From Desulfomonilia bacterium (lineage in GTDB: Bacteria > Desulfobacterota > Desulfomonilia > UBA1062): 64,000 nt of DNA. Position 1 is the stretch's first letter, and each line of letters begins with the position of its first letter. The stretch lies in assembly GCA_963664325.2 (NCBI GenBank), contig CAXXDQ010000007.1, positions 448,001 to 512,000 on the forward strand. The letters run 5' to 3'. The position numbers and the translations under genes are program-made. The notes under the pieces are model-generated. The model saw only the letters and a program-made list of their open reading frames with translations, ran no database searches and was not told the DNA's origin. This document shows positions 9,703-42,623 of the stretch, one piece after another.

Positions 9703-9706
9703 GGCG

Positions 9707-12982: not shown

Positions 12983-13015
12983 ACGATAATAAGTAAGCGC
13001 TCAGAAGATGAAGAT

Positions 13016-14564: not shown

Positions 14565-14870
14565 TCAGTCAGTCAATTCACCGTTCAAGACACGGGCCCT
14601 CATCTCCGGGGTCAAGGGCGAACCCCGTTCAAGAAAATCGGGCGGTCTGTATTCAATATCAATTCCCCCAGATGGAGACCCGTCCGGATAAAGCAAAACC
14701 ATGCGGGAAACTTCACCTTTTGTCAGTTTCTCCACCATGTATGCCAGCTTGGGATTAAACTTTCTTTTTCCCGACAACAGCTCGGAAAAATAGCTGGGAG
14801 ACAACCCAAGCTCTTCAGCCAGTTTCTTTTGAGTAATTCCTCCAATATTCAACCAGGTTTTAAGATCCAT
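14565..14870 (-). CDS. Cro/YdaS-like HTH transcriptional regulator
   Basis: MDLKTWL...TQKKLAEELGLSPSYFSELLSGKR...VEKLTKGEVSR...LYPD. GAGG RBS before ATG 14870. Confidence 0.8.
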   Translation of the reverse strand: MDLKTWLNIGGITQKKLAEELGLSPSYFSELLSGKRKFNPKLAYMVEKLTKGEVSRMVLLYPDGSPSGGIDIEYRPPDFLERGSPLTPEMRARVLNGELTD

Positions 14871-14974
14871 TCTTTTCCTCATTAAATATACTTGAATATT
14901 GCTTCCAAGAATTGCATATGTCAATTACAGTATACTCTTTATCAGCAACAATCCTAATTTTTATTGCGGCGACC

Positions 14975-14991
14975 ATTCGCAATCTGCGAAT
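14975..14991. promoter_or_regulatory. Palindrome ATTCGCA-ATC-TGCGAAT, candidate operator
   Basis: Perfect 7-bp inverted repeat between the divergent Cro-like and GAF-PAS genes. Confidence 0.4.
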
Positions 14992-15030
14992 TTCGTTGCC
15001 GTCTTATATTCCAGGTGATATATTTTAAAG

Positions 15031-18176: not shown

Positions 18177-18284
18177 AAGAATTCTCCCGATTTTTCTGGG
18201 TATCTACACCCTATTCGATATCATGTCTACAATGTGTTAAAAATGAATTTGAAATATTGCAGCCGATACACCAACCGGGTTTTA

Positions 18285-21149: not shown

Positions 21150-22151
21150 TTAAACCTGCTCTTCGTTTGAATTTTGTTCAGCTGCATCACCTGAATTCAG
21201 AAAATCCGAGAGTGTCTGCCACACTGGAAGCAATTCTTCCCATACCTTTATAAATTCATCATACCTTTTCTTTCTGAATTCCGCCCTGTCCTTTTCAAGG
21301 CACGCAATCCCGGTTTTCAAACGCGGGATAATGCGTACATTTCCGCTGTATTCAATGGCTCTTCCTGCTTCGTCTTCGAGAAAAACCGGCAGAAAGTGCG
21401 CCCATACATCACAGTCGTGTATATCGCCAAGTATTTCCTGAATTGCCTTTGCCGCCTTGATCGGTTTTCTGAGCCTTGTCCTGAAAAGCGGCTCGAAGCT
21501 TTCCATCGCGTATCTGAGATGCTTTGCGGCAATACGCATCTGATGAAGTTCAACACTGCGAGAAGGCTCTCTGATATACATTTCATAACCGAAAAGTTCC
21601 CCCAGAAGCGCCTTTATTTCCCTTGAAGCAAGCATGAACGCATAACGGCCGGGCTTTGCCGGTTTGTCAAAGGCCATTGTGCCGAGTATGGTCCGGAACA
21701 GTTCCTGCATCTCCGTGAATATCCGGCCGTCCTCCATGCGCGTGACAGCTTTGGTTACAGCCGACTGAAGGCCTTCCCTCCTCTGGGTCAATCTGAGCAG
21801 CAGCCTTCTGATGCCTTCCTTCTGTCTCCTTGTTTCAAGGGAGTCCATAAATTCCCTTATATGGATTATCTGGACATCGGCATCCCGGGCCTCGCCCAGG
21901 GCCCGAGTCAGCGAACGCACCCTTTTTCTGTACATCGAGGCCTTTGCATCAGGCAGACATTCTGCGAAAAGCTTCAGGCGGGTCCTCAATCTCCGGGAGG
22001 CAACCCTCATCCTGTGAAGGAACTCAGCGTCTTCCGCAATCTTTACGCCTTCGGCCTCCCGCATTATGGCCTGGAGCTGTGCCGTTAGCGCCTCTATGCT
22101 GAATTTTACAAACATCCTGTCAGGAGTCGCTGTATCGGCTACTTGTTCCAT
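21150..22151 (-). CDS. CHAD domain polyphosphate-binding protein
   Basis: EFLHRMRVASRRLR, LGEARDADV, LHQMRIAAKHLRY, LGDIHDCDV. Confidence 0.9.
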   Translation of the reverse strand: MEQVADTATPDRMFVKFSIEALTAQLQAIMREAEGVKIAEDAEFLHRMRVASRRLRTRLKLFAECLPDAKASMYRKRVRSLTRALGEARDADVQIIHIREFMDSLETRRQKEGIRRLLLRLTQRREGLQSAVTKAVTRMEDGRIFTEMQELFRTILGTMAFDKPAKPGRYAFMLASREIKALLGELFGYEMYIREPSRSVELHQMRIAAKHLRYAMESFEPLFRTRLRKPIKAAKAIQEILGDIHDCDVWAHFLPVFLEDEAGRAIEYSGNVRIIPRLKTGIACLEKDRAEFRKKRYDEFIKVWEELLPVWQTLSDFLNSGDAAEQNSNEEQV

Positions 22152-24316
22152 GAACCCCTGTTCTCCAGCAGCCACTGCTGCGAATCGATCTCATCCTGTC
22201 CCTCGGCATGCACTATCCTGGAATATGTTCCGTCAGGCAGCAATAGCCTTGATTTGACATTATCATCCAGATGAACTTTCAGTATTCTTTCATAAATAGT
22301 CTTTTTGATCTTTTCATAGAGTATCGGGAACAGGACCTCGATCCGTCTGTCAAGATTTCTCGGCATCATGTCCGCGCTTCCCAGGAACATCTCGTCCTTG
22401 CCCCCGTTCCTGAAATAGAAAATCCGTGCATGTTCAAGAAACCGTCCCACTATGGATGTAACCCTGATGTTCTCGCTTACCCCGGGAATACCCGGTCTTA
22501 GGCAGCATATGCCGCGTATCTGGAGGTCGATTTTCACCCCGGCCTGAGATGCCCGGTAAAGCGCCTGGATAATCTTCTTGTCGACGAGAGAGTTCATTTT
22601 GAATGCAATGTAGCCGTCAGCCTTTTTCCGGTGTCTTTCTATTTCGCGATCAATACGCAAAAGAACTTCCTTCCTCATCCGTCCAGGCGCCACAAGCAGG
22701 CTTGTAAAATCGCTCTTCGCGGAATAGCCCGTGAGAGAATTGAACAGGTCGGTTACATCTTCGCCTATGGCAGGATTGCAGGTAAAAAGCCCGATGTCCG
22801 TATAAATGCGGCTGGTGATCGTGTTGTAGTTGCCGGTGCTCATGTGGACATAGCGTACTATTCCATTTTTCTCGCGGCGCACCACGAGGCAGAGCTTTGC
22901 ATGCACCTTCATGCCGATGAGGCCGTAGACCACATGCACACCCTCTTTTTCAAGCGCACGCGCCCAGTGTATGTTGGTTTCCTCATCAAAGCGCGCCTTC
23001 AGTTCAACCAGTGCGGCCACCTGCTTGCCTTCGATTCTCGCATCCATGAGGGCGTCGTAAATCGGCGAATTGACGCCTGTCCTGTAAAGAGTGAGTTTTA
23101 TTGCCAGTACATCAGGATCTTTTGACGCCTGCCTTATAAAATCGACAACCGGCGTAAAGCTCTCATAGGGGTGGTACAGGATGATATCGCGGTTCCTTAT
23201 TTTACTGAAGATATCGCCGCTGCCTGAAAAAACCTTCGGCACGGAAGGTATGTATCCAGTATCCTTAAGGTCCGGCCTGTTGATCTTTGCAAGCTGCATA
23301 AGGTCGGTCGTACCCATCAGGGATTTCGTTACAAAAACCAGATAAGGCTCCACTTTTAAATTTCTCATGAGGATATCTCTGATTCTTGCAGGCATGGTTT
23401 CATTCACTTCAAGCTTAACCGCAATACCGAAATGCCTCAAATCAAGACCTTCCTCGACCGTTGTCAGGAGGTCGGAGGCCTCGTCGTCCTCTATTTCTAT
23501 ATCGGCGTCCCTTGTAATCCTGAACGGATATGAGGCGTCCACCTTCAATCCCGGAAAAAGCGTGTCCAGATTAGCGGCAACAACTTCTTCCAGAGGGACA
23601 AAGCAGTATCTTCCCTGCTTTGCCAGAGGCTCAAACTCTGTCTTGTCGTCACTTTTTTCTGGAATTCCAATGAACCTCGGGAATATATCGGGCATCTTCA
23701 GCCATGCAAACCTGTCGCCTTTCTTCGAGTCGTTTATCATAACGGCCAGATTGAGGCTCAGACTCGAAATATGCGGAAACGGATGCGAGGGGTCAAAGGC
23801 CAGCGGCGTTAAAACAGGGAATATCTCCTTTCTGAAATACTCCCTCAAATAATCTTTATCCTCCTTCTTCAGCGACTGGTAGGAAAGCACGCTGATTCCG
23901 GCCTCTTTCAGTTTCGGCCTGAGGTCCTCCTCCCAGCATTTATCCCTGGTTTCCAGAAGGGGCTGCAGCATCTTCCTGATTTCCTGAAGCTGTTCGCCAG
24001 GGAGCATGCCGTCTATAGAACGCTCCTGGGAACCCGACGCAAGCTGATCCCGCAGGCCTGAAACCCGTATCATGAAAAACTCGTCCAGGTTGCTCCCGAA
24101 TATCGAGAGAAACTTGACCCGCTCCAGAAGCGGCTGGGACTGGTCCAGAGCCTCCTCCAGCACTCTGGAATTGAACTGAAGCCAGCTCAGTTCCCGGTTG
24201 ATGTAAAGCCCGGGATCATTGAGAGAATCCATGCCTGTCTTTGCAGAGACCTTTTCCGGAGCCTTTTTACCTGCTATACGCTTTTTCACATCTTTTGGTT
24301 TCTTTTCTTTCTTCAT
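22139..24316 (-). CDS. ppk1: Polyphosphate kinase 1
   Basis: YINRELSWLQFNSRVL, NLDEFFMIRV, HPFPHI, HPYESF, ELKARFDEE, KVHAK, GRFLEHAR. Confidence 0.97.
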   Translation of the reverse strand: MKKEKKPKDVKKRIAGKKAPEKVSAKTGMDSLNDPGLYINRELSWLQFNSRVLEEALDQSQPLLERVKFLSIFGSNLDEFFMIRVSGLRDQLASGSQERSIDGMLPGEQLQEIRKMLQPLLETRDKCWEEDLRPKLKEAGISVLSYQSLKKEDKDYLREYFRKEIFPVLTPLAFDPSHPFPHISSLSLNLAVMINDSKKGDRFAWLKMPDIFPRFIGIPEKSDDKTEFEPLAKQGRYCFVPLEEVVAANLDTLFPGLKVDASYPFRITRDADIEIEDDEASDLLTTVEEGLDLRHFGIAVKLEVNETMPARIRDILMRNLKVEPYLVFVTKSLMGTTDLMQLAKINRPDLKDTGYIPSVPKVFSGSGDIFSKIRNRDIILYHPYESFTPVVDFIRQASKDPDVLAIKLTLYRTGVNSPIYDALMDARIEGKQVAALVELKARFDEETNIHWARALEKEGVHVVYGLIGMKVHAKLCLVVRREKNGIVRYVHMSTGNYNTITSRIYTDIGLFTCNPAIGEDVTDLFNSLTGYSAKSDFTSLLVAPGRMRKEVLLRIDREIERHRKKADGYIAFKMNSLVDKKIIQALYRASQAGVKIDLQIRGICCLRPGIPGVSENIRVTSIVGRFLEHARIFYFRNGGKDEMFLGSADMMPRNLDRRIEVLFPILYEKIKKTIYERILKVHLDDNVKSRLLLPDGTYSRIVHAEGQDEIDSQQWLLENRGSWNK

Positions 24317-25830: not shown

Positions 25831-26310
25831 TTATTTATTAAACGCTTCGATAACGGCATCCGGAACCCTGACCGCAACAACTTCACCCCGTGCGCACTCG
25901 ACTCCGCCAGAAGAAAGAATGGTAGTTATTATAACCTTTTTGGGCTTTATCTCTTTTGCGCTTGATCTGAGTTCAAGAGGCACCCCCATCGGCGTCGGGC
26001 TCTTGAAATCGACATGAAGCGCAGCGGTCAGAAACCTTATTTCCGGCTTGCTTCCGATCTCCCTGCCTTCGGCACGCGCTGCATAGGCGGCCGCCGAACC
26101 CGTGCTGTGGCAGTCAATAATCGATGCTATGAGACCGCCGTACACCATTCCCGGGATCGCCATGTATTTCCCGTCAGGAATAAAGGTGCAGACCGTTTCG
26201 TCTCCGTCCCAGAAGCTTTTTATCTGCAAACCTTCGCTGTTCAATCTTCCGCAGCCATAGCAATGGCTGAAGTTGTCCGGATAACAATCCTGAAAGGCCT
26301 TATTGTTCAT
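25831..26310 (-). CDS. PaaI-family thioesterase
   Basis: HCYGCG, YGGLIASIIDCH, hot-dog fold; start inferred at the ATG overlapping the upstream gene end. Confidence 0.85.
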   Translation of the reverse strand: MNNKAFQDCYPDNFSHCYGCGRLNSEGLQIKSFWDGDETVCTFIPDGKYMAIPGMVYGGLIASIIDCHSTGSAAAYAARAEGREIGSKPEIRFLTAALHVDFKSPTPMGVPLELRSSAKEIKPKKVIITTILSSGGVECARGEVVAVRVPDAVIEAFNK

Positions 26311-26662
26311 GGCAGCCGTGCTCATGGAGTTCACATGCGACTCCCGAATCCGTCAGGTTTCCTGAAAGCCAGGCCAGCATCACTTCTTTTACATCGCCGG
26401 AACAGCCCCTCACAACATCGATCCCGACGCTGTTGAGCACATTGACCGCACCCTGGCCCATAATGCCGGCAAGCATCAGGGTAACTCCCATCTGTTTGAG
26501 CGTACCGGCTATGTTGGACCTGCAGCCGCAGCCCGCCTGGGAACTGACAATTTCCAGCGCAGCGATTGATCTTTTCTCGTCAACCGTAAAAACCGTAAAA
26601 TACTCGCAATGTCCGAAATGTTCATCTATCCTGTTCTGTCTCGATGGTAACGCTATTTTCAT
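26300..26662 (-). CDS. NifB/NifX-family Mo-Fe cluster-binding protein
   Basis: MKIALP...HFGHCEYF...GCGC...MGQGA. Confidence 0.9.
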   Translation of the reverse strand: MKIALPSRQNRIDEHFGHCEYFTVFTVDEKRSIAALEIVSSQAGCGCRSNIAGTLKQMGVTLMLAGIMGQGAVNVLNSVGIDVVRGCSGDVKEVMLAWLSGNLTDSGVACELHEHGCHEQ

Positions 26663-26672
26663 TTTTTTCTCC

Positions 26673-27074
26673 TTAAACTTTTCTTATATTTTTTCTGCAG
26701 TAGGGACATCTTCCCGCGTTATTCATCCCCTCGCAGAGAACTGTCGCCCTTTTGCAGTTTTCGCAAGGATTCATGCCGGGCTTGACGATAAAGATATCAC
26801 CCCCGCTTATTCTGAGGGCCTTTCCGTTCACAATAAAATCTGCGATCTTCTGCTGGGCTGATTCGATTATCCTGCCGAATGTCGGACGTGATATGTTCAT
26901 CATAGCCGCTGCCTGTTCCTGGTACATGCCCTCGTAGTGCGCAAGCCTTACGGCCTCGAATTCATCCAGGCTCAGATGAACTTCCCCGCAGGAAGAAGCC
27001 TTCACTCCTTCCGGCTTAAAGCATGTATTCTCCGGCATCAGGCCTATGTTTCTGCAGCACTTGGGTCTGGGCAA
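26673..27074 (-). CDS. DUF134 DNA-binding protein with Cys-rich tail
   Basis: MPRPKCCR...FKPEG...LDEFEAVRL...QEQAAAMMNISRPTFGR...GKALRISGG. Confidence 0.92.
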   Translation of the reverse strand: MPRPKCCRNIGLMPENTCFKPEGVKASSCGEVHLSLDEFEAVRLAHYEGMYQEQAAAMMNISRPTFGRIIESAQQKIADFIVNGKALRISGGDIFIVKPGMNPCENCKRATVLCEGMNNAGRCPYCRKNIRKV

Positions 27075-27198: not shown

Positions 27199-28728
27199 TT
27201 ATTTTTCTGTCTTTAACCTCAATGAACGTTCGAATCCGGGCAGCCGTGACTCATTGACAAAAAGTCTGTACGGCCTTCTGATCTTCCACCCCTTCATAAC
27301 AGGATCATACATGCCTATTTTTCTGCCAGAAAAAATAAGTTTCGGATATTTATTATTCTTCCGTTCAAATACTGCCAGTTCTATCCTTTTAACCTTTGGC
27401 AGCAGTTTTATGAAAATTCCTGAACGCGACAGGCCATGATAAACGCAGTGGAGCAGCCTTGATATAAAACGCATGACAGGCCTGCGCACCTTTACCAGAT
27501 GCATCTCCGCAACACCCAATAAACCTCCATAAATCCTGCGCATCCGGCCATCTCTATGTGATTCGCAAACCCGGCCGATAACATTAATCCTGTCAATTGT
27601 ATATGGGTCGGGATTGGCATTACTATCTCCCTTTGTCCGGATCTTGGAGTCTTTTACTTCAATAATTCTGTGGACTATCGTATCTTCCCTGGTTTCAGTC
27701 TTGTAGCATATTACATCGCCTTTTTTTATCCTTGAGCCGGCATCATAAGGAATAACAGTCATCATTTCAGGTTCGATAAATGTAGGATTCATGCTTACGC
27801 CGCGATAGACGAAATACAAACAGTTTCCATTTTTCCTTTTTTGAACATAATCATTTTCAGACAGCCTGACGTTCACTTCTTCAATCTCTCTCCTTTGAAG
27901 GATAACAGATTTAAGGGTCTTTTCCATCTCCTTCCAGAATTCACCGGTAAGGCTGATATGAAGCTGGAAGGCAGGGACAGATTGGGACAGTACATTCGCT
28001 CTTTTAATAAAGTTTTTAACAAGCCCTTGTTTTTCCCTAGCAGTAAACATATTCGAGCGTGTGACATGTTCGACAGTATCAATGATCATGGCCTTCGCAT
28101 GCGCCTTGTCAACCGGTATTGCAAAGTCATTAGGTGACTGCACCAGGAAAAATATCACATTAAGCTGAATTCCATCCTCAACTTTCCAGCTCCCGCCTGG
28201 CCCCTTCGTATAAAACCTGCTCCATGTAGGCCAGGGATGGGCTCTGAAGCCACCATTGCCATCAGGTATAATTATCGTCGCGTCGTCGCAGTAAGAAATC
28301 CAGGGTCCGGGCAGCCTCATGCTGGCTGTGGATTTGCCGATAGTCCCCGGACCGGCCATAATTGCGCCTGCTCCATCATGCGAACACAATGCACCGTGAA
28401 TGAGCATTCCGCCCTTATTCGTAGCATCGATAACAACAGCCTGGGCAATCCTTTCCACCTGGATATTGAACATCTCTCTGTTTTCGGCCGGATTGAGTAT
28501 GCAAAGGATCGGCTCTTCGTCGTTTTCAGGTATAACGAGCTTTTTTTCACCTCTTTCATGTTCCTTTACACAGACCAGAATTTTTCTGCCCTGTTCTTCT
28601 ACTTTCTCAAGCTGCATGATTTCCGCAAGCTTTTGAACAAACGTTTCCGCTTTTTTATCGGTTGGGATGATTGAATATCCAATTGATTCCGTCAGTTTCA
28701 TTACGGGATTCTTATTGATAGTATTCAT
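27199..28728 (-). CDS. scmC: SynChlorMet cassette ScmC-like protein (HPr-kinase-like P-loop) fused to an S26/S24 peptidase domain
   Basis: GGMLIHGAL...AGPGTIGKST...CDDA...RAHPWPTWS. C-terminal GVSMNPT...GDVICY...IVHRII...TKGDSN..PD (signal peptidase I, Ser-His type). Confidence 0.8.
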   Translation of the reverse strand: MNTINKNPVMKLTESIGYSIIPTDKKAETFVQKLAEIMQLEKVEEQGRKILVCVKEHERGEKKLVIPENDEEPILCILNPAENREMFNIQVERIAQAVVIDATNKGGMLIHGALCSHDGAGAIMAGPGTIGKSTASMRLPGPWISYCDDATIIIPDGNGGFRAHPWPTWSRFYTKGPGGSWKVEDGIQLNVIFFLVQSPNDFAIPVDKAHAKAMIIDTVEHVTRSNMFTAREKQGLVKNFIKRANVLSQSVPAFQLHISLTGEFWKEMEKTLKSVILQRREIEEVNVRLSENDYVQKRKNGNCLYFVYRGVSMNPTFIEPEMMTVIPYDAGSRIKKGDVICYKTETREDTIVHRIIEVKDSKIRTKGDSNANPDPYTIDRINVIGRVCESHRDGRMRRIYGGLLGVAEMHLVKVRRPVMRFISRLLHCVYHGLSRSGIFIKLLPKVKRIELAVFERKNNKYPKLIFSGRKIGMYDPVMKGWKIRRPYRLFVNESRLPGFERSLRLKTEK

Positions 28729-28742
28729 GGCGAAGTGATTTT

Positions 28743-29909
28743 CTAATTTAGCTGCTTCTTTTTTCTCGACGCAGCGAACCTTCCTGATTCATTCGCCTCA
28801 AGGCACATGGTATGCGGCCATAGGAGTCTGCCGAAGTTCGAGTAGTTCTGCACAACACAGCCTGTCCTGCATTTGCGCATGAATATGCAGTTGCGGCACA
28901 GTTCCGGATAATTCGCGAAATCCATTAGATCATTTCTGAGTCTCACGACCGCCGGATGGTTGAGCCATATGTTCCTGATCGAATCTTCTCCGAGCTTGCC
29001 GTAAACAAGTTCGGGCATGGTCCTGCCTATTCCGCACAGAGCAATAGCCCCTGAGCCAAGGATGCCGAGTATATGGTCAACCCCGCAATCGCCTGCATTG
29101 GTATTTGAAACAAGCTCTTTAATCGGTCTTAAAGAAAGCGGAATGTTAATTATAACAGGTATGCGGGAAATCTTTTTCAGAGAGCCCCTCACAAAATCAG
29201 ACAGCTCAATTATTTCCTTAAGTGCAAGTGTCTCGTTCCTCTCGTGCATGAGGATGCCTCGGCCGTTGTTTGTCACAGGATTCAACTTTACCGAACCCGC
29301 GCCCTTCGACGCCGCCATCTTGACGAGCTCTTCAACCTCGCCGACATTGCCCCTATGAGGGGACATGATTATCTGCACGTTCTTGTAGCCGGCATCGACA
29401 AGGCACCTTAGACCGTTCAGAGCCGTCTTGTAAGCGCCTTTGACGCCTCTGAACCTGTCATGGGATTCCTCATGTATGCTGTCCAGACTTATTGATATGA
29501 AGCTGATCTTCGTCTCTTCCCTTAGAAACCTCGCCTTTTCTTCATCGAGGAGCGTGCCATTGGTTTCCATATTCAGGCTCAATCCCTCTTCGGAGAGCAT
29601 TCTGGCTATTTCCCTGAACCTCGGATGTATCATCGGTTCGCCACCGGTAAGCTTGGCGTTGGTCAGACCGAGCGGCTTCGCCTCATTCACTGCCTGTCTT
29701 AAAAGCTCTATGTCAATGACCTCGCCGGGAGACGGCTTCCCGTTTACGAAAGAAGGCGTTATCCAGCAGTGCCTGCACTTCAGATTACAGCTGTCAGACA
29801 TGTAGAGGTAAAACGCTCTCAGAACCGGGACGCCTTCAGGCAGATCGGGATTTCTCTTATTGTCACTATCAACCATATCGCTGCTTAAGCAAAGATCGGT
29901 CATTCTCAA
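28743..29909 (-). CDS. scmF: Radical SAM/SPASM peptide maturase, ScmF-like
   Basis: YLYMSDSCNLKCRHCWITP; SPASM CGVDHILGILG...ALCGIG...CRNC...CRTGC. Start could be a slightly downstream ATG. Confidence 0.82.
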   Translation of the reverse strand: MRMTDLCLSSDMVDSDNKRNPDLPEGVPVLRAFYLYMSDSCNLKCRHCWITPSFVNGKPSPGEVIDIELLRQAVNEAKPLGLTNAKLTGGEPMIHPRFREIARMLSEEGLSLNMETNGTLLDEEKARFLREETKISFISISLDSIHEESHDRFRGVKGAYKTALNGLRCLVDAGYKNVQIIMSPHRGNVGEVEELVKMAASKGAGSVKLNPVTNNGRGILMHERNETLALKEIIELSDFVRGSLKKISRIPVIINIPLSLRPIKELVSNTNAGDCGVDHILGILGSGAIALCGIGRTMPELVYGKLGEDSIRNIWLNHPAVVRLRNDLMDFANYPELCRNCIFMRKCRTGCVVQNYSNFGRLLWPHTMCLEANESGRFAASRKKKQLN

Positions 29910-31012
29910 ACCTCTTGAAGATATTTTTTATAGCAGACAAGCGGATCAATGGAGTTCAACATACCGGTCTTTGACATGACTGTTCCGGGACATCCGCCGG
30001 TGCAGAATCCTGCATACAGACAGCCCCGGCATTCTTCGGCCTCGGTTATTGGAATTTTGCGTCGCTCCCTCACAATATTTATGTTCGGGTGAGCCTGCCA
30101 GACCTCTTTGAGCGAAACCTCTCCCATTTTTCCCATGACCAGGGTGGGCAGCATGTTGCACGGCACATATGTTCCGTCGTGCAGAACCGCCATCTTGTTG
30201 AACACTCCCCCACAGGAGCAGAATGTTCCTCTGCCTTTCATCGAGGTTTCACCTCTTTCAAGCCTCTCACTGATTTCCCTCATCATCCTGGCCCTTGTCA
30301 GCGGCCCGGCCTGTGCGCTTATACGACCGCCGTATCTTTCATCGATCGAGACAAGCGTAACCATTGCCTTCTTTCTTTCTTCTATACTCAGTATGATATC
30401 CTGGCCGTTGCAGCGGGCGCTTCCCATATAGTCGGCCTCGTTCGTGCTGAATCCGGACAGACCCACGTCATCTATGAGCAGCTCGGCAATGTTTTCAAGG
30501 TCATTTACATTATGGCGGTTTATGGTAACCCTCACGGTGACGGGAAAACCATGTTTTTTCAGTAGTCTGAGTGCGCCTATCGCCTTTTCGAAACTCCGGG
30601 GAGGCCTGCTCTTGTCATGGATGTCCGGTCTTGAACCGTCGACTGAAATCTGGATGGAATCGAGCCTCTGCCTGCGTTTTCCTTTAAAGAATTCGCTTAT
30701 GGTTTTCTCGTCAATGAGCGTGCCGTTGGAAAGTATTTTGTATCTCATCTTGTTGTCTATGACACTGTCGATGATTTCGAAAAGGTCTTTTCTTATGAAC
30801 ACTTCGCCCCCGCTCAGGCAGACCTTCTGAACCCCCAGACCACCCGCTTCACTGAAAAATGCAAGCCAGTCCCCGGTAGGAAGATCATCCGCCTTTTCCA
30901 TGCTCTCTGCATAAAAGCAGTAGCGGCATTTAAGGGTGCATTTTCCTGTAAGTCCTATGTCGAGTTCAAGTGGGGCGGATGATATTCCGGGATAACCTTC
31001 AGGAGATTTCAT
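29906..31012 (-). CDS. scmE: Radical SAM/SPASM peptide maturase, ScmE-like
   Basis: LDIGLTGKCTLKCRYC; SPASM CSCGG...VPCNML...CRGC..AGFCTGGCP...DPLVC. Overlaps both neighbours. Confidence 0.82.
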   Translation of the reverse strand: MKSPEGYPGISSAPLELDIGLTGKCTLKCRYCFYAESMEKADDLPTGDWLAFFSEAGGLGVQKVCLSGGEVFIRKDLFEIIDSVIDNKMRYKILSNGTLIDEKTISEFFKGKRRQRLDSIQISVDGSRPDIHDKSRPPRSFEKAIGALRLLKKHGFPVTVRVTINRHNVNDLENIAELLIDDVGLSGFSTNEADYMGSARCNGQDIILSIEERKKAMVTLVSIDERYGGRISAQAGPLTRARMMREISERLERGETSMKGRGTFCSCGGVFNKMAVLHDGTYVPCNMLPTLVMGKMGEVSLKEVWQAHPNINIVRERRKIPITEAEECRGCLYAGFCTGGCPGTVMSKTGMLNSIDPLVCYKKYLQEV

Positions 31013-31277
31013 TTATAAAATTTACTCCCAGCATTTTTATGAAGTTTTCCGCATCATTTTTTGCGCTTTCAAAGTCTATACCGCTGAAGCTCTCGACAAG
31101 GAAGGCGGCTATTTCATCCAGAGTCCTCGGCTTTTCTATGAAAACCCATATTAGCCCGCCCGTTACATTCATTATCGTGCTTAAATCCATGTCAGGGTTA
31201 TATAGAACCGCGCCTTCATGGTCTTCATCTCTGAACGAGACATCCGGGTTCGACTGATATCTTATTCCATTCGCCAT
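30999..31277 (-). CDS. scmD: PqqD/RRE peptide-recognition protein (type A, ScmD-like)
   Basis: 92 aa: NPDVSFRDE...GAVLYNPD...MNVTGGLIW...TLDEIA..L...F...AKNDAENFI. Confidence 0.85.
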   Translation of the reverse strand: MANGIRYQSNPDVSFRDEDHEGAVLYNPDMDLSTIMNVTGGLIWVFIEKPRTLDEIAAFLVESFSGIDFESAKNDAENFIKMLGVNFINEIS

Positions 31278-31368
31278 TTTTCACCTTGATTTATATAATT
31301 TTGCTCGATTGATGTTTTCTTTAAAACGTTTACCCGGTGCAATAAATTCAGTTTCAACATAAAACTAG

Positions 31369-31398
31369 AAGCCGGAGACATTCAAAAATCTCCGGCTT
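31369..31398 (-). terminator. Hairpin downstream of precursor gene 1 (terminator or mRNA-stabilising stem-loop)
   Basis: AAGCCGGAGA-N10-TCTCCGGCTT, perfect 10-bp stem 18 nt after the stop. Confidence 0.65.
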
Positions 31399-31416
31399 AT
31401 GGAATAAACTGGCTTA

Positions 31417-31677
31417 TTAAAAACCATTACCTTCAGAAACACAAGCAGTACTTGCTGAGTTTCCTGAAGAAAAACAGTCATGCATATCGGTTCCTGGTGA
31501 ATTGCCATCACCAGTACATGACAGGGTTGCAAAATTACCAGTCATGCAGGGGGAGTCTGCATTTGATCCCGGTGTAGTACAGTCTCCGATAGAATTCGAG
31601 GTTCCATCAAGCTTTATCGCTTTCGGCGCTTCGTATACGTGTTTAGAAACGGTACCGGATTTGTTTTCTTTAGCCAT
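31417..31677 (-). CDS. Cys-repeat RiPP precursor peptide 1 (86 aa)
   Basis: MAKENK...VYEAPKAIKLDGTSNSIG-DCTTPGSNADSPCMTGNFATLSCTGDGNSPGTDMHDCFSSGNSASTACVSEGNGF. AGGAG RBS; paralogous to 32095 and 32393. Confidence 0.85.
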   Translation of the reverse strand: MAKENKSGTVSKHVYEAPKAIKLDGTSNSIGDCTTPGSNADSPCMTGNFATLSCTGDGNSPGTDMHDCFSSGNSASTACVSEGNGF

Positions 31678-31775
31678 CACCATCTCCTAATATATTATCA
31701 TCCGTCATGAGCAAGATAATATTTAACACTTAATCTAAAGACGGGAAAAGTCAACCGTCATATGTTACATTGTCG

Positions 31776-32098
31776 TCAATATATTACCCTGCAGCCGGAG
31801 AAACCGTTCGAGTTGAGCCTGTCCGCAAGTTCAAAGACATCACAGCCGATGTCCCCGGGTACACCCGTAAAAGCCTCTTTTATAAGCTCTACTATCCGGC
31901 CAACGTCTTTAGCGCCGTCGCTGCATTCCTTCTTAACTTGCCCGTGGAGTTGACGGGCACAAAATTTCCGGTATCCATATTGACCCGCACGGCCCAGCCG
32001 TTTTCTTCATCCTGATAGATAACATCGGGGTTGTAGAGAATTGCACCATCTTCTCCCTCGTCCCGGAATGATATGTCAGGGGTCGCTTAATACTTCAA
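31776..32098 (-). pseudogene. Chimeric PqqD/RRE pseudogene (type A N-terminus fused to type B body)
   Basis: Hand translation: KY*ATPDISFRDEGEDGAILY-NPD-VIYQDEENGWAVRVNMDTGNFVPVNSTGK..[1-nt deletion ~31920]..DGAKDVGRIVELIKEAFTGVPGDIGCDVFELADRLNSNGFSGCRVIY*. Confidence 0.85.
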
Positions 32099-32346
32099 AA
32101 ACCACTCCCTACAGTAAGACAAGTCGTAGGGCTATTACCACTTGAATCACAATCGCCTATAGCGCCTATTCCATTGGCATAACAAGCTTGCATTGCTCCA
32201 TTACCATTCGTAATGCAATCTTGAACATCCCCTGAACCAGCCCCAACACAATCACCCATAGATTTACGGGTGCCATCCAGCCTCATTACCTTCGGCGCTT
32301 CGTAAACAGGCCTCACATCATTGACATTCTTTTTTTCTCTTGCCAT
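32095..32346 (-). CDS. Cys-repeat RiPP precursor peptide 2 (83 aa)
   Basis: MAREKK...VYEAPKVMRLDGTRKSMG-DCVGAGSGDVQDCITNGNGAMQACYANGIGAIGDCDSSGNSPTTCLTVGSGF. AGGAGAGG RBS. Confidence 0.87.
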   Translation of the reverse strand: MAREKKNVNDVRPVYEAPKVMRLDGTRKSMGDCVGAGSGDVQDCITNGNGAMQACYANGIGAIGDCDSSGNSPTTCLTVGSGF

Positions 32347-32392
32347 TATCCTCTCCTTGTTTTTAACCAATAAGCAGGGTTCGCTTTATACC

Positions 32393-32641
32393 TCAAAAAC
32401 CACTCCCATCAGTAAGATAATTTACAGGGCTATTACCACTTGCTTCACAATCTCCTATAGCGCCTGATCCAGAAGCATGACAAATATCTATTGCACCATT
32501 ACCATACGAAAGGCAATTTTGACCATCACCTTAACCCGCCGTACATTCCCCTAAAGATGTTCGGGTGCCGTCCAGTCTCATTACCTTTGGCGCTTCGTAA
32601 ACAGGCCTCGCATCATCGAGATGCCTTTTTTCTTTTGCCAT
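32393..32641 (-). pseudogene. Cys-repeat RiPP precursor 3 with an in-frame TAA
   Basis: MAKEKRHLDDARPVYEAPKVMRLDGTRTSLGECTAG*GDGQNCLSYGNGAIDICHASGSGAIGDCEASGNSPVNYLTDGSGF; TAA at 32531-32533. Confidence 0.87.
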
Positions 32642-32795
32642 TTTCCCCTCCCTTATCTTTATCCAATAAGAATGAGCAATATCTTATAATCTCAAAATTT
32701 AAAAGGATGGGAAGTCAACATTCGTAGTACAGCAAACCATTACAATTTTAAAGATCTTCCAATCCGGCAACCGGCGGGCAAATTTGTCATAAGCA

Positions 32796-33083
32796 TCAAT
32801 ACTCCACCTTATATCCGAAAAAACCGTTTGCCCTGAGGTTATCGATCAGTCCGGCAACATCATTATCAATATCATCAGGCACGCTTGAAAAGCTCTCTTT
32901 TATAAGACCGATTATCTTTCCCACGCTTTTCCTACCGTCAGCCGCCTTCCAGATTGATTTGCCCGTACTGTTAACGGCAATCGAATTGCCAGTGTCCATA
33001 TTGACCAGAACGGCCCAGCCATCATCCTCATCCTGATAAATCACGTCCGGGTTCGGATACGGTATATACTCGTAATTTGACAT
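32796..33083 (-). CDS. PqqD/RRE peptide-recognition protein (type B)
   Basis: NPDVIYQDEDDGWAVLVNMDTGNSIAVNSTGKSIW..ADG...IDNDVAGLIDNLRANGF. Confidence 0.85.
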   Translation of the reverse strand: MSNYEYIPYPNPDVIYQDEDDGWAVLVNMDTGNSIAVNSTGKSIWKAADGRKSVGKIIGLIKESFSSVPDDIDNDVAGLIDNLRANGFFGYKVEY

Positions 33084-33227: not shown

Positions 33228-34100
33228 TCATCTGGATTTTGAAAAGTCTCCGCGCAGATACGGGACAAGCGAACTTATGACAAACCAGGCAAAGGCCGCA
33301 AGGATTACTGTGGCGCCTGTAGCGGTATAGGCCCATTCCTGAGCGGAAATTATCAGGCCGGCTGCGGCCGACGTTATGCTTATCAGAACCGCCCACCAGA
33401 ACATGGCGCCGGCCGTGCGGGACAGATTCCTTGCCGCAGCAGCAGGTACAATGAGAAGGGCCGTTACAAGCAGAACCCCCACTGCCCTTACCGAAAAGAT
33501 CACCACGACTGAAAGCAGCGCGGCATACATGTACTGATAAAAAGCGACCTTTATCCGGTGCGCCCTGGCAAGTGCATGGTTGAGTCCGATATAAAACAGA
33601 CGGTTGTAGCTGAAACCCATAAAAACAATGATGATAAGGGCAAGGGCTGCAAGCCTTAATATATCGCCGGTGCTTATGGACAATATGTCGCCATACAAAA
33701 AGATCTGCATATCGCGGGCTACGCTGCGGTCGCGGCTGACTATCGCAATTCCGAATGCTACGACGGCGGAAAAGAAAACACCTACAACAGTATCCATGGA
33801 AAGCTTGCTTTTCCGCTGCATCACCGTAATGGAAAGTCCGACAATCAGGGCGAATACGACCATAGTAACTGAAGGGTTCATTGATGCCATCAATCCTATG
33901 GCGACTCCTGTAAAGGCCGAATGGCTTATTGCATCAGAGAAAAACGCCATCCTGAAATTTACGACCTGTATGCCCATGACAGCGGCCATCGGCGCCAGAA
34001 GCAAGAGCCCGACAAGCGCCTGCTGCATGAACCTTGCTTCCATACATTCGAAAGGAAGCGCCAGAGGTATGATACCGTAAACAGCTGACAGGTCAGGCAT
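33228..34100 (-). CDS. znuB: Zn/Mn ABC transporter permease
   Basis: MAFFSDAISHSAFTG, FLYGDIL, VGVLLVTALLIVPAAAA. Confidence 0.9.
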   Translation of the reverse strand: MPDLSAVYGIIPLALPFECMEARFMQQALVGLLLLAPMAAVMGIQVVNFRMAFFSDAISHSAFTGVAIGLMASMNPSVTMVVFALIVGLSITVMQRKSKLSMDTVVGVFFSAVVAFGIAIVSRDRSVARDMQIFLYGDILSISTGDILRLAALALIIIVFMGFSYNRLFYIGLNHALARAHRIKVAFYQYMYAALLSVVVIFSVRAVGVLLVTALLIVPAAAARNLSRTAGAMFWWAVLISITSAAAGLIISAQEWAYTATGATVILAAFAWFVISSLVPYLRGDFSKSR

Positions 34101-34899
34101 TCGCAACACCCCCGCCATTTTCCTCATCACATTCTGTACAACCGTCCTTTATCGGCCTGAAGCTGAGCTCTCCGATATGAGGACCGAACATGTCAAGCAG
34201 TATGCCCTTGTTGAAAATGTCTTTCGGCGCACCTTCCGCAATCAATTTCCTATTGAGGCAAATCACATGGCTAGCATGGTAGGCCACCATTCCCAGATCA
34301 TGGCTGACCATAAGCTGGGTAAAGCCTTTTTCAATTCTGAGGTGCTCAAGGAGATGGCAGAAAACCTGGCCTCCTTTCATATCAACACCGGCGTCAGGTT
34401 CATCAAGAACAAGGATTTCCGGATCCCTCTGAATGGCAAGAGCCAGCAGAACCCTCTGCATCTCTCCGCCTGAAAGAGCACCGAGTCTTCTTCTCAAAAG
34501 GTGCTCGGCCTTTACCGAATAAAGCAGTTGAGAGGCAGTCTCCTGCATGCTTCTGTCTATTCCGAGCCAGAACGGTTTTTTCTGAACACCCATGGACAGG
34601 AATTCGATTACGGTTAAAGGAATACCCCTGTCAAAGGCGAACCGCTGCGGGACATAACCTATTCTGACTCCGCTCTTTGAATCATGTGAATAAATTCTAA
34701 TATCGCCTCTGTATTTTATCTCGCCGAGCAGAGCAAGCAGCAGCGTTGTTTTCCCGGCGCCGTTCGGGCCTATGATTGCCGTGCACTCTCCCTCAGGGAC
34801 ATCCGCATTTATATTCTCAAGGATCGACACCCCTCCCATTTCCACGCCTAAATTTTTAAATTGAATGGCTGACTTAACGGACAGATGTTCTTTTTCCAT
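34093..34899 (-). CDS. znuC: Zn/Mn ABC transporter ATPase
   Basis: GPNGAGKTT, IGYVPQ, LSGGEMQR, LDEP, SHD. Confidence 0.92.
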   Translation of the reverse strand: MEKEHLSVKSAIQFKNLGVEMGGVSILENINADVPEGECTAIIGPNGAGKTTLLLALLGEIKYRGDIRIYSHDSKSGVRIGYVPQRFAFDRGIPLTVIEFLSMGVQKKPFWLGIDRSMQETASQLLYSVKAEHLLRRRLGALSGGEMQRVLLALAIQRDPEILVLDEPDAGVDMKGGQVFCHLLEHLRIEKGFTQLMVSHDLGMVAYHASHVICLNRKLIAEGAPKDIFNKGILLDMFGPHIGELSFRPIKDGCTECDEENGGGVANA

Positions 34900-34900
34900 T

Positions 34901-35854
34901 CTATTTCTTCCCCAGTGTCACTTTTAATGTCTCTATGTTTTTCATCATAACCATTTCATAATAGTTGAGGCCTGCATTTTCAGGGCCCGTGGCAACAGGG
35001 TCGAGTATTGCTGACGGTATGCCGGCCTCTTTTGCTATAACCTGCGGCACCTTTGATGAATACTGGGGTTCATAAAAAACGGCGCCCGCCTTATATCTCT
35101 TGACTTCCCTTATTATTGAAAGCATCTCCGATGCCGACGGTTCCTGGCCGGGATGCGACTCTATAACGGCAACTATATCAAGACCTGCATCGCGCGCCAG
35201 ATAATCGAACACCCCGTGCTGGGTAACGATATTCCTGTTTTTAAGCATCTTAACCGATGAAACGAAATTATCCGACAGGCGGTTCATTTTTGAAGCATAG
35301 GCCTTTGCATTCCTGTTGTAGGTTTCAGCCCCGCCGGGGTCGGCTTTTGAAAGAGCCGAGGCTATGTTCATGGCAAGCTGACCACACATACGGGGGCTTG
35401 CAAAAAGGTGCGGGTTTACACCTTCATGATGATGGTCCTTGACCTTGTCATGGCCCGTCAGAATCTGACCGCCATCCGCGTTTCCGAGAAGGTTTTTTAT
35501 GCCCGCCGAACTGTCAACAACCCTCAACCGGCTGTTCGCCTTCCCGAGAATCGTGTCCATGAACTCCTCCATCCCCAGACCGTTTATTATAAGGATATCC
35601 GCCCTGGAAATCTTTTGCATGTCCTTCGGCGTCAAGGAATAATCATGCGGGCACCCGGATGCCGGAGGCAGCATCAATTCGACTTTGACCGCAGCATTTC
35701 CCTGAACGACATTCCTGGTTATCTGATAAACGGGAAAAGTGCTGCAGAGGACTTCCATCTTTTTCCCTGACGAATAAACCTCGCCGGTCATCAGAAATGA
35801 CAATAGGAAAATACAGCTCATAATGATGGCCTTCATTTCACACTTTCCAATCAT
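34901..35854 (-). CDS. znuA: Zn/Mn ABC substrate-binding protein
   Basis: CPHDY, His-rich loop HDKVKDHHHE, NPHLF, EP motif. Start may be ATG 35836. Confidence 0.9.
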   Translation of the reverse strand: MIGKCEMKAIIMSCIFLLSFLMTGEVYSSGKKMEVLCSTFPVYQITRNVVQGNAAVKVELMLPPASGCPHDYSLTPKDMQKISRADILIINGLGMEEFMDTILGKANSRLRVVDSSAGIKNLLGNADGGQILTGHDKVKDHHHEGVNPHLFASPRMCGQLAMNIASALSKADPGGAETYNRNAKAYASKMNRLSDNFVSSVKMLKNRNIVTQHGVFDYLARDAGLDIVAVIESHPGQEPSASEMLSIIREVKRYKAGAVFYEPQYSSKVPQVIAKEAGIPSAILDPVATGPENAGLNYYEMVMMKNIETLKVTLGKK

Positions 35855-35880
35855 TTACCGGCCCCTTTAAAATAGCTTAT

Positions 35881-35924
35881 TGCAAACTCATTTGCATTAT
35901 GATTATTAACAATAAACATGTCAA
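35881..35924 (-). promoter_or_regulatory. znuA promoter and probable Zur operator
   Basis: Minus strand TTGACA-N17-CATAAT (35924-35896). Palindrome TGCAAA-CTCA-TTTGCA (35881-35896) abuts the -10/+1. Confidence 0.7.
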
Positions 35925-35973
35925 TCGTTATTGGGATTTAGCTCATAACAATAAATTTCAAGAAGGTTTAGGA

Positions 35974-36351
35974 ATGTACAAGCGAAACACATCTCGAAGA
36001 AAACTGCTTGAGGAGATCATGTCATCAAGCGCAACCCCTTTAAGTGTTCAGGATATCTTATCCAAAGGAAGGGCGCGGATCAAGTCGCTAAACCAGGCCA
36101 CCGTTTACAGAAACCTGAAGATTCTCGTAGAAAACGAACGGCTGAAGGTCATCTCCCACCCGGCGCTGGGCCATCTCTATGAAATGAAGGAAAAGGACCA
36201 TCACCACCACTTTTATTGTCAGAAATGCGATAAGGTCTACCAGCTTGACGGCTGCCCGCTGAAGAAAACAGGTATTTCACCACCAGGATTTGTGCTTGAG
36301 GACCATGAAGTGTACCTCTCGGGCATCTGTGCAGACTGCAACAGAAGCTGA
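35974..36351 (+). CDS. zur: Fur-family regulator, probably Zur
   Basis: ATVYRNL, HHHHFYCQKC, GICADC; divergent from znuACB. Confidence 0.85.
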   Translation: MYKRNTSRRKLLEEIMSSSATPLSVQDILSKGRARIKSLNQATVYRNLKILVENERLKVISHPALGHLYEMKEKDHHHHFYCQKCDKVYQLDGCPLKKTGISPPGFVLEDHEVYLSGICADCNRS

Positions 36352-41131: not shown

Positions 41132-41898
41132 TAATCCTCGAAGCCGGCAACCTCAATAAACGCTTCGGCGGTCTGCAGGCCGTAGGAGATGTCAGTTTCA
41201 CTGTCAGGGAGGGTACAATCAAGGCGCTTATCGGCCCGAACGGCGCAGGCAAAACCACGCTCTTCAACCTTCTTACCGGCGTGATCCCTCCCGATTCCGG
41301 CAGGATAGTGTTTAATGGACGAGAAATCCAGCGGGCCCATCCCTACATCGTGGCAGAGCTTGGAATGGCGCGTACATTCCAGCATATCAGGCTCTTTTCA
41401 GGAATGACCGCCATCGAGAACATCATGGTAGGTAGGCACACGCACAGCAGGTCTGGTTTTATCTCCTGCATGCTGGGCCTTCCCCCTACGGGAAAAGAAG
41501 AAAAATTCATAAAGGAAAAATCCTTTGAAATAATGAAATTCCTCGGCATCGAGGAACATGCGCATACCAATGCCGCAAGCCTTGCCTACGGCCAGCAGCG
41601 GATAGTTGAACTGGGCCGGGCGCTGGCATGCGAGCCGAAGCTTCTACTTCTTGATGAACCTGCCGCAGGGCTCAACATGAGAGAGACAGCAGAAATGGCA
41701 AAGCTCATCATGAAGATCAGGGATACGGGCATTACAGTGCTTATCGTCGAGCACGACATGAGTCTTGTCATGAACATCTCGGATGAGATACTCGTCTTGA
41801 GCTACGGCCAGAAGATAGCCGATGACATACCCTTGGCGATACAGAAGAATCCCGAAGTTATCAGGGTATACCTGGGGGAGGACGATGCTCAGGCTTAG
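41128..41898 (+). CDS. livG: Branched-chain ABC ATPase (LivG-like)
   Basis: FGGLQAV, GPNGAGKTT, ARTFQ, LDEPAAG, EHDM. Confidence 0.92.
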   Translation: MIILEAGNLNKRFGGLQAVGDVSFTVREGTIKALIGPNGAGKTTLFNLLTGVIPPDSGRIVFNGREIQRAHPYIVAELGMARTFQHIRLFSGMTAIENIMVGRHTHSRSGFISCMLGLPPTGKEEKFIKEKSFEIMKFLGIEEHAHTNAASLAYGQQRIVELGRALACEPKLLLLDEPAAGLNMRETAEMAKLIMKIRDTGITVLIVEHDMSLVMNISDEILVLSYGQKIADDIPLAIQKNPEVIRVYLGEDDAQA

Positions 41899-42623
41899 GA
41901 ACATGGAATCCGGCTATTCCGGACTTAAGGTGTTGAGGCGGTTGTCCATTCACGTCTCCCAGGGTGAAATCGTCACCATAATAGGCGCAAACGGTGCCGG
42001 GAAAACGACCCTTTTGAAGACAATTGCGGGGCTTATAAAGGCCTCTTCAGGCGAAATCCTTTTTGAGAATTCCGACATCTCGAAGCTTCCGCCAGAAAAG
42101 GTCGTCATGCTGGGATGTTCGCTCGTGCCTGAAGGAAGGCAGGTCTTCGCACCCATGACGGTCAGGGAAAACCTTCTGCTCGGGGCATACCCGCAGTATA
42201 GAAGAAGAAAAAAGCAAAGAAGTCGATGAAGACCTGCGGCGCATATTCACGCTGTTCCCGAGGCTTCTCGAGCGCGAAAAGCAGCTTGCGGGAACCCTCT
42301 CGGGAGGGGAGCAGCAGATGCTCGCCATGGGAAGGGCGCTTATGGCAAGGCCCAAGCTCATCATGATGGACGAGCCTTCAATGGGGCTTGCACCGCTGAT
42401 TGTGAAGGATATCTTTTCGATAATACGCCTTCTCAAGGATGAAGGTAACACTGTGCTTCTCGTCGAACAGAACGCAAAGATGGCCCTGTCCATTGCAGAC
42501 AGGGGCTACGTGCTGGAAACCGGCAGGATCATGCTTGAAGAAAAGGCCCAGGAACTCCTGTCCAACAAGGATGTCCAGAGGGCGTACCTAGGCAGGGACC
42601 TGGATTCGGAAGTCAGGATATAA
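41885..42623 (+). pseudogene. livF: Branched-chain ABC ATPase (LivF-like) with one frameshift (probable sequencing error)
   Basis: GANGAGKTT and VPEGR in one frame, [16 protein letters not shown] and DEPSMG in the next; removing one A from the A6 run at 42208-42213 joins them. Confidence 0.88.

Follow-up and report, generated by a model that had tools for sequence, protein, structure and literature searches.

A candidate precursor family with Cys-x2/3-Gly repeats for SynChlorMet-type radical SAM cassettes

The SynChlorMet cassette is a gene set with curated names, defined by the four TIGRFAM models ScmD (TIGR04248), ScmC (TIGR04249), ScmE (TIGR04250) and ScmF (TIGR04251); going by the family description, we know of no precursor peptide identified for it. 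We analyzed a stretch of 64,000 nucleotides (nt), hereafter the window, from a Desulfomonilia bacterium (GenBank assembly GCA_963664325.2, contig CAXXDQ010000007.1, positions 448,001 to 512,000 of the forward strand), in which genes of this set surround the short Cys-bearing open reading frames (ORFs) P1, P2 and P3. We are nearly certain that P1, P2 and their relatives in other genomes are precursors of peptides that are ribosomally synthesized and modified post-translationally (RiPPs) belonging to SynChlorMet-type cassettes. The best overall explanation, to which we assign a probability of roughly 0.6, is a pathway resembling that of type 2 sactipeptides, guided by a RiPP recognition element (RRE), in which several rings would be installed on one peptide and the leader removed by an S26 peptidase. 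The four named models include neither this peptidase nor the second RRE, the exporter and the nucleotidyltransferase of the loci described below.

Among the closest described systems, thuricin CD is a two-component antibiotic with a nested hairpin structure and has no C-x2/3-G repeat of the kind found here. Its two radical S-adenosylmethionine (SAM) enzymes, TrnC and TrnD, act as a complex, and both are needed to form the thioethers (PMC12093266). Streptosactin contains unnested sactionines, with Cys31 joined to Gly34 in GggA, a CxxG spacing (PMC8172795; PMC9389541). The type 2 sactipeptides (streptosactin/GggB, QmpB) have unnested rings in which the Cys precedes its acceptor, the pattern that the peptides of the window share by sequence. 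They differ in that they have two rings and one enzyme, whereas most of the peptides here have 3-10 repeats and two enzymes are present; also unlike them, the proposed acceptor here is always Gly, the RREs are discrete proteins, the leader carries a YxxP motif, an S26 peptidase and a kinase are present, and the hosts are anaerobic bacteria and methanogens. StsB makes Cys-to-Gly sactionines with a discrete RRE (PMC10288494), and the StsA/StsB/StsC system combines such thioethers and a discrete RRE with a WxxP recognition motif (PMC10288494, PMC12710340), comparable to the RRE and YxxP motif here; StsA is a nested hairpin, CxCxCx4GxGxG, modified by one enzyme, unlike the repeats and paired enzymes of the window. 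Lasso peptide clusters of the paeninodin, pseudomycoidin and bsf types have in common with these loci a YxxP motif at position -17, a discrete RRE, an HPr-kinase homologue, a nucleotidyltransferase and an ATP-binding cassette (ABC) transporter (PMC8498205, PMC10368454), but their kinase targets a C-terminal Ser that is not conserved in the present peptides.

The precursor genes of the window sit between two RRE genes and upstream of the genes for ScmE, ScmF and an ScmC-S26 fusion:

27199..28728, minus strand: ScmC-S26 peptidase fusion, 509 residues (TIGR04249, 153.7 bits; TIGR02228, 60.6 bits)
28743..29909, minus strand: ScmF-like radical SAM/SPASM enzyme (TIGR04251, 313.6 bits; next family 108.9)
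29906..31012, minus strand: ScmE-like radical SAM/SPASM enzyme (TIGR04250, 391.7 bits; next family 124.7)
30999..31277, minus strand: RRE-2, PqqD family (PF05402, E = 2e-8), overlapping the start of ScmE
31417..31677, minus strand: precursor P1, 86 residues from an ATG preceded by a ribosome-binding site, the same ORF also opening at 31683; YxxP motif at Tyr15, predicted cut after Gly31, core start at 31584, five C-x2/3-G units
32095..32346, minus strand: precursor P2, 83 residues; predicted cut after Gly31, core start at 32253, five C-x3-G units
32393..32641, minus strand: precursor P3 region, leader intact; ORF as encoded 32531-32641
32796..33083, minus strand: RRE-1, PqqD family, ScmD-like (PF05402, E = 3e-13; TIGR04248, 54.4 bits)

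Two radical SAM/SPASM genes, PqqD-family genes and ScmC thus occur together within 27199-33083, and the Scm models are the best NCBIfam matches for five cassette proteins. ScmE and ScmF are 24% identical to each other, and a quick tree places RRE-1 and RRE-2 in separate clades. The ScmC portion is an HPr-kinase-like P-loop domain with His111, GKST and DD motifs; the S26 portion resembles SEC11 and archaeal-type signal peptidases, with Ser312, His353, Asp368 and Asp374, followed by an uncharacterised C-terminal domain of ~110 residues. ScmC exceeds the curated cut-off of TIGR04249 (153.7 against 125), as the peptidase does that of TIGR02228 (60.6 against 51.85). Because ScmC is the only Scm protein of the window to clear its cut-off, we classify the cassette by its sequences as SynChlorMet-type, part of a broader family and not a strict member.

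The first-pass annotation, made from the letters of the window, had described three precursors that share VYEAPKxx(K/R)LDGT, carry S-[IML]-G immediately before [DE]-C, and have Cys spacings of 10/9/13/10 (P1) or 10/10/10/9 (P2). The shared leader is present in all three minus-strand ORFs, as are the junctions (S-I-G|D-C in P1, S-M-G|D-C in P2 and S-L-G|E-C in P3), and the spacings, counted as residues between successive Cys, match the sequence. All 10 Cys of P1 and P2 have a Gly at +3 or +4, and the two peptides end in GNGF and GSGF, respectively. P1 and P2 are intact, but P3 is interrupted: as encoded it has 36 residues and one Cys, with an in-frame TAA (32531-32533) after the first Cys unit that aligns to a TCA Ser codon of P2, and the rest of its core and its GSGF end occur only beyond the stop, where the fifth Cys codon reads TAT, for Tyr (32417-32419). 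Scanned in all six frames with a looser motif, the window shows 6 matches, and P1-P3 are the only ones in short Cys-bearing peptides.

Beyond the window, we searched genome contigs with an ScmE alignment, which gave 328 confirmed stretches, and kept the best 80 as loci (numbered with the prefix L). A profile restricted to 34 residues, counted from the YxxP motif, matched 67 ORFs in 56 sources (64 in 55 of the 80 loci, plus the three of the window) and nothing in the reversed database; loci without a profile match were mostly short or ended by a contig edge. Of the loci, 43 have 4 kb or more on each side; the profile found a precursor in 39 of these and a pattern in 3 more, and 65 of the 67 profile-matched precursors lie no more than 610 nt from the nearest cassette gene. 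The same 43 loci contain an RRE (43), a ScmC-like protein (43, a count that includes L007, where the match belongs to a neighboring system), ScmF (41), an S26 peptidase at the strict threshold (35), an ABC exporter (28) and a PF14907 nucleotidyltransferase (23). A whole-precursor profile then retrieved 2079 representatives of 50%-identity clusters at E <= 0.001, the uninspected remainder of which includes unrelated repeats; 142 of the best 150 had the leader, and after dropping 8 leaderless sequences and setting aside 3 seeds, 139 new precursors joined the 67 ORFs in a family set of 206. Host groups of the loci include Chloroflexota, Aminicenantes, Verrucomicrobiota, Desulfobacterales, WOR-3 and Clostridia, as well as the archaea Methanoregula, Methanospirillum and Methanothrix.

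This sample also ties the peptides to the named cassette. The Scm models were the only matches below 1e-50 for all 24 locus enzymes scanned. The ScmE orthologue of L001, 83% identical to that of the window, clears the TIGR04250 cut-off at 411.5 bits, and the ScmF orthologue clears that of TIGR04251 in one of the 12 loci scanned; this locus, L040, has both enzymes above the curated cut-offs (ScmE 415.5, ScmF 563.4) and carries a nine-unit precursor, which links the peptide family to the strict TIGRFAM family. Parts of the earlier description turned out to be local. Of the 206 members, 6 have YEAPK, 3 have S-[IML]-G-[DE]-C, all of them from the window, and 3 end in G[NS]GF, which rules out a GxGF end as a family signal; judged by this comparison, all three are local features and not a family rule. 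One relative of P2 was found, P0122, at 60% identity.

What the family does share is a Gly after nearly every core Cys. In the locus and window precursors, a Gly stands at +3 (227) or +4 (90) from 317 of 319 core Cys, and both exceptions come from one precursor with extra adjacent Cys; shuffles gave a mean of 116 (standard deviation 8, maximum 140 in 1000 shuffles). The 34-residue profile covered the first unit, so later units were not selected for. In the further 139 database precursors, chosen with a profile that itself contained the pattern, 840 of 842 Cys have the Gly. Successive Cys are 10 or 11 residues apart in 173 of 255 intervals, the core is rich in G, S, A, T and N, and precursors mostly have 3-10 units (range 2-21). 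The Cys count is odd in 73 of 205 precursors, which argues against obligatory disulfide pairing.

The proposal that the same small ring is installed repeatedly is consistent with this pattern and can be sharpened to an invariant C-x2/3-G unit with Gly as the acceptor: the Gly is invariant while its neighbors vary, and it offers no carbon other than the alpha-carbon, making it the candidate thioether acceptor. From the invariant Gly and the precedents of GggB and StsB, we infer that ScmE and ScmF, alone or paired, would abstract an alpha-hydrogen from the Gly of each unit, which would then be joined to the Cys sulfur of its own unit, giving successive unnested sactionine rings of 4 or 5 residues with a predicted mass change of -2 Da per ring, or -10 Da for P1 or P2. 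On balance we favor such Cys-to-Gly alpha-carbon rings, made by ScmE/ScmF. Both features expected of a type 2 sactipeptide locus occur here, namely SPASM radical SAM enzymes and, as a sequence pattern only, the alternation of Cys with a downstream Gly; the names GggB and QmpB are absent among the 25 best NCBIfam families listed for the window proteins, and the StsB model NF045574 gives the two window enzymes only 103 and 84 bits against a cut-off of 625. Seven SPASM Cys are conserved in both enzymes (in 70-72 of 72 ScmE and 64 of 64 ScmF sequences), a pattern that we take to mean that the first auxiliary cluster is one Cys short and has a site free for the substrate thiol, as in CteB.

Ring size probably does not account for the presence of two enzymes. 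One enzyme per ring size seems unlikely, because 22 of 56 sources have only CxxG units (1 of 56 has only CxxxG units) and both enzymes are generally present. Two reasons remain for the pair, an obligate partnership as in thuricin CD or a second reaction at the residue three positions after the Gly (Gly+3).

The leader follows a grammar of its own: basic residues, then Y-x-x-P-x4-L, then [AGVS]-x-G. Across the 206 members Tyr is present in 99% and Pro in 100%, partly by construction of the set, and Leu in 87%. The Gly stands at Tyr+16 in 109 and at Tyr+15 in 71; [AGVS]-x-G with its Gly at one of these positions occurs in 168 members, compared with 44±6 in shuffles (maximum 61 of 1000). The residue two before the junction Gly is A, G, V or S in 173 of 193 precursors, with a free middle residue, and the residue after it is most often Gln (61 of 193). 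In lasso leaders YxxPxL spans -17 to -12, with Tyr at -17 (PMC10368454), which would make the Gly at Tyr+16 residue -1. The flanking RRE genes and the lasso-like distance from YxxP to Gly bear out the suggestion that the leader resembles the RRE-binding motif of lasso precursors. The prediction of an RRE-leader complex, put forward as a check of that suggestion, gave a score of 0.50 for RRE-1 with the leader and 0.02 for the best control (contact agreement 86% or higher, partner pLDDT 54 or higher). In a benchmark 116 of 157 solved pairs and 2 of 215 mismatched pairs reached the mark; at a score of 0.60 or below this held for only 18 of the 157 and for both mismatches, so the model weakly supports leader binding and may owe its score to similarity with solved lasso RRE-leader complexes. 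From this model, homology and conservation, a discrete RRE would bind the YxxP-x4-L leader.

The S26 domain is the proposed leader peptidase because a small-x-Gly junction with a free middle residue fits a SEC11-like enzyme. Its catalytic residues are kept (Ser in 43, His in 44 and the two Asp in 46 and 45 of 46 sequences), its closest solved relatives by sequence are SEC11C/A (E = 5e-15), and its predicted fold matches Escherichia coli signal peptidase I (Z 11.0, root-mean-square deviation 1.7, 95 residues aligned). It shares the Ser-His-Asp residues and fold with SEC11/SipW-type (S26B) signal peptidases but has no transmembrane anchor (the 19-residue hydropathy peak is 1.02 in the window protein and below 1.5 in 42 of 46, and the model has no N-terminal helix), carries the extra ~110-residue C-terminal domain, is often fused to the kinase and would act on a hydrophilic leader. 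The Ni-SOD maturation protease is presumably an analogue, with only 20.5 bits for TIGR02754. The earlier expectation of an S26 site after S-x-G held in so far as a small-x-Gly site and an intact peptidase are present, while the general form is [AGVS]-x-G. The soluble SEC11-like domain would cut after [AGVS]-x-Gly, 16 residues past the Tyr, leaving a core that starts with Asp-Cys; conservation makes a cut between Gly31 and Asp32 by this peptidase probable. A natural swap points the same way: L007 (Methanoregula, 9157-16235) has ScmE, ScmF and RRE-2 and lacks a cassette-type ScmC-S26 and RRE-1 within 21 kb, a C39-ABC transporter is present, and its two C-x2/3-G precursors carry double-Gly leaders, which supports S26 as the usual leader peptidase, with n = 1. 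The same single locus hints that RRE-1 may serve the kinase or the peptidase.

Several observations weigh against this account. In the window, ScmE (391.7 against 400), ScmF (313.6 against 400) and the RREs (54.4 and 21.7 against 100) fall below the cut-offs of TIGR04250, TIGR04251 and TIGR04248, although each model is still the best match, by 267 bits for ScmE and 205 bits for ScmF; and L076, a well-flanked locus, has no precursor. ScmE keeps His278 in 72 of 72 sequences, and this residue may occupy the vacant iron site, in which case ScmF would be the more likely thioether enzyme; 48 of 72 ScmE proteins have an extra Cys at 265 or 269. The predicted ScmE model (pLDDT 89.6) matches SuiB, CteB, SkfB and anSME at 17-20% identity, and since SuiB forms C-C bonds while CteB and SkfB form thioethers, the fold does not point to one chemistry; solved relatives of the radical SAM enzymes do not exceed 20% identity. 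Ring size would vary between CxxG and CxxxG, which is unusual for one active site, and the invariant Gly could have a structural role alone. A second candidate target is Gly+3, where A (516), P (262) or V (124) accounts for 902 of 1156 units. In 93 of 206 precursors the spacer is longer, and 57 of these have another P-x-G ahead of the first Cys, so that the cut site is ambiguous in those precursors. Finally, no invariant Ser/Thr target for the kinase was found in the precursors, whose last residues vary.

These points bear on four alternatives. In the first, which we consider unlikely, the same precursors undergo other radical chemistry and the Gly is a structural turn, the enzymes acting elsewhere: the Cys could form a thioether to Gly+3 of the previous unit, as in a ranthipeptide, a thio-oxazole or thioaldehyde could be made, or a thioether enzyme could work beside an epimerase or C-C-forming enzyme at Gly+3. 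The enrichment of A, P and V at Gly+3 would fit, as would the ranking of SuiB first for the ScmE model, the possibly His-filled auxiliary site, and the retention of two distinct enzymes together in 41 of 43 loci when one ring type needs no second. Against this, residues such as H, F, Q, D and Y are also accepted at Gly+3, whose distance to the next Cys varies, and the Gly itself is nearly invariant; no invariant non-Gly residue stands near the Cys, the PapB model scores 70 against 340, and a second modification would be compatible with Cys-to-Gly thioethers and need not displace them. Of comparable improbability is removal of the leader elsewhere or by another protease, with the Gly as residue -2 of a degenerate double-Gly leader, or with S26 cutting between units or acting on another substrate. 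The L007 precursors give this idea substance, G-[GAS] lies near the site in 70 of 206, and 8 of 43 loci have an S26 domain below threshold or none; yet several of these 8 have S26 fragments or weaker S26 matches, GG occurs in only 22 of 206, the commonest residue after the Gly is Gln, small residues two before it with a free middle position form a signal-peptidase pattern, and a C39 domain was absent from 3 of 3 typical ~600-residue cassette transporters examined. The pairing of a double-Gly leader with a C39-ABC transporter was seen only in L007.

Much less probable is a metal-binding or beta-solenoid structural peptide with free or disulfide-bonded Cys, on which the radical enzymes would make a lesser change. 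The regular 10-11-residue spacing, the G/S/A/T/N-rich core, a 21-unit member, a FlgD-Ig fusion and a ZnuACB operon before the cassette in the window and L001 would suit such a peptide; set against these are the odd Cys counts, the lack of a second Cys within a unit, the conservation of two SPASM enzymes and RREs with the peptide, and the absence of any further zinc-uptake neighbor among the 146 scanned. We give almost no credence to lasso precursors or chance ORFs. The YxxP leader, its lasso-like spacing, a weak match of one member to lasso_leader_L3 (E 0.03, below cut-off) and the kinase and nucleotidyltransferase also found in lasso clusters (PMC8498205) recall lasso peptides, but no lasso cyclase or B2 protease was found among clusters present in at least 3 loci or among the 146 of 293 selected neighbors scanned, the reversed database gave no match, and the ORFs keep a conserved place beside cassette genes.

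Under the sactipeptide-like pathway, the least certain step is phosphorylation, in which ScmC would modify the peptide at a Ser/Thr-type target. Of 65 ScmC sequences, 63, 64, 62 and 61 keep the HPr-kinase His, P-loop and DD residues; searching PDB sequences with the kinase domain yielded nothing of use. In lasso clusters a kinase and a nucleotidyltransferase make phosphoglycosylated peptides (PMC8498205), and a nucleotidyltransferase and a peptidase-free ABC exporter occur in many of our loci; profiles found neither in the window. A member of eight shared gene clusters read as surface-polysaccharide genes (five labeled by scans, three by reading of the sequences) is present in 25 of the 80 loci, a count without a background control. 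P0164 has roughly ten C-Q-P-G units, rich in K/Q, fused to a FlgD-Ig / secretion C-terminal sorting-like domain, and P0125 is a 265-residue precursor with 21 C-x2/3-G units and no Pfam or Atlas match. The polysaccharide neighbors, this fusion and the 21-unit member hint at a cell-surface role, the weakest part of the account.

The three precursors of the window are probably not independent. P2 and P3 share 80% nt identity over 299 nt, and a damaged RRE gene lies between P2 and P1:

31779..32090, minus strand: broken, frameshifted, chimeric RRE remnant

It begins like RRE-2 and continues like RRE-1, the two parts meeting at an NPD stretch common to both; it gives 42 and 24 bits with the PqqD profile and is 73% identical in nt to RRE-1 over 166 nt. 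In L001, the closest of the best 80 loci and syntenic with the window, a single precursor lies between two RREs. Taken together, these sequence comparisons indicate that the array most likely arose by local duplication, with the remnant as its likely junction and P3 probably a decaying duplicate of P2, so that agreement among P1-P3 partly reflects shared descent and is not independent evidence. A branched-chain ABC ATPase gene (41822-42623) is apparently split over two frames, so frameshift or sequencing errors are possible in the window, which bears on the reading of the P3 stop. One further element lies between the precursors and the enzyme genes:

31369..31398, minus strand: 11-bp RNA hairpin just after P1

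Its predicted energy is -19.1 kcal/mol (z -4.7; 0 of 200 shuffles as stable), and it is a possible terminator or stabilizer that could hold precursor message above enzyme message.

Around the cassette, a ZnuACB operon (33228-36351, same strand) lies 145 nt upstream of RRE-1 beside a divergent Fur-family regulator, and L001 has the same arrangement; a zinc link was set aside, this neighbor being confined to the window and L001 among the 146 of 293 selected neighbors scanned. Downstream on the same strand are DUF134 and dinitrogenase FeMo-cofactor-domain genes (26300-27074), and ~3 kb downstream (18285-24316) are what we take from their motifs to be polyphosphate kinase, a CHAD-domain protein and two Ppx/GppA-type phosphatases.

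Locus architecture varies elsewhere. L039 (Methanothrix, 12273-15216) has five precursors, a second ScmF copy, an exporter and a nucleotidyltransferase; L058 (6654-17958) has two convergent ScmE/ScmF cassettes with one precursor each; and in L012 (Methanomicrobiales) three genes with ice-binding-like domains flank the cassette (1384-2733, 17479-20854). In Chloroflexota cassettes a sulfotransferase-like domain is fused to an RRE (L013 13844-14668, L069 14017-14835, L080 14315-15133), a possible extra tailoring enzyme judged by a weak match below the Pfam cut-off (L013 and L069 scanned). An additional precursor type that lacks annotation, W-x-K-P-x-L...E-x-V-L-x-x-C, was also seen:

L039 5610-5843 and 2802-2993; L040 8449-8658; L045 20667-20885; L075 14659-14877; L009 816-1022: second precursor type

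It lies mostly beside a sister system with an RRE and distinct radical SAM enzymes that fall short of every listed NCBIfam cut-off, and in some loci with a radical SAM-kinase or S26-GNAT fusion.

NCBIfam, Pfam and PHROGs held no family at cut-off for the precursors scanned; weaker matches were to lasso_leader_L3 (E 0.03), CsgB (E 0.049) and DUF5972 (E 0.03). In the ESM Atlas, P2 matches unnamed 'hypothetical' clusters at 0.92-0.93, and the 21-unit member has no usable match. Source names give 'hypothetical protein' for 5 of 21 precursor matches and a functional name for none, and no plasmid match was found for P2. Our literature search found no description of these precursors, which supplements of large RRE/radical-SAM surveys could list; they were not found in those of PMC10288494 (spreadsheet) and PMC12710340 (PDF text). 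The names SynChlorMet and Scm/TIGR04250 yielded no papers, and a search aimed at a soluble SEC11-like RiPP leader peptidase found no precedent.

From these comparisons, the peptides are most likely a new precursor family for a known, named but orphan radical-enzyme cassette. More speculatively, and on our estimate improbably, they could represent a large RiPP class of anaerobes and methanogens, poly-sactionine beads on a string with 3 to ~20 Cys-Gly rings made by the radical SAM pair and set free by the soluble S26 enzyme acting as a dedicated leader peptidase. Phosphorylation would follow, and loci with the nucleotidyltransferase would also glycosylate the peptides or couple them to surface polysaccharide; they would serve as envelope components and not as secreted antibiotics. 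If the ring proposal is true, an enzyme needing only C-x2/3-G, with the rest of the sequence free to vary, would offer a general means of making many small thioether rings. A cassette with curated names but no precursor model now has an assigned substrate, by which ScmC, ScmE and ScmF become assayable.

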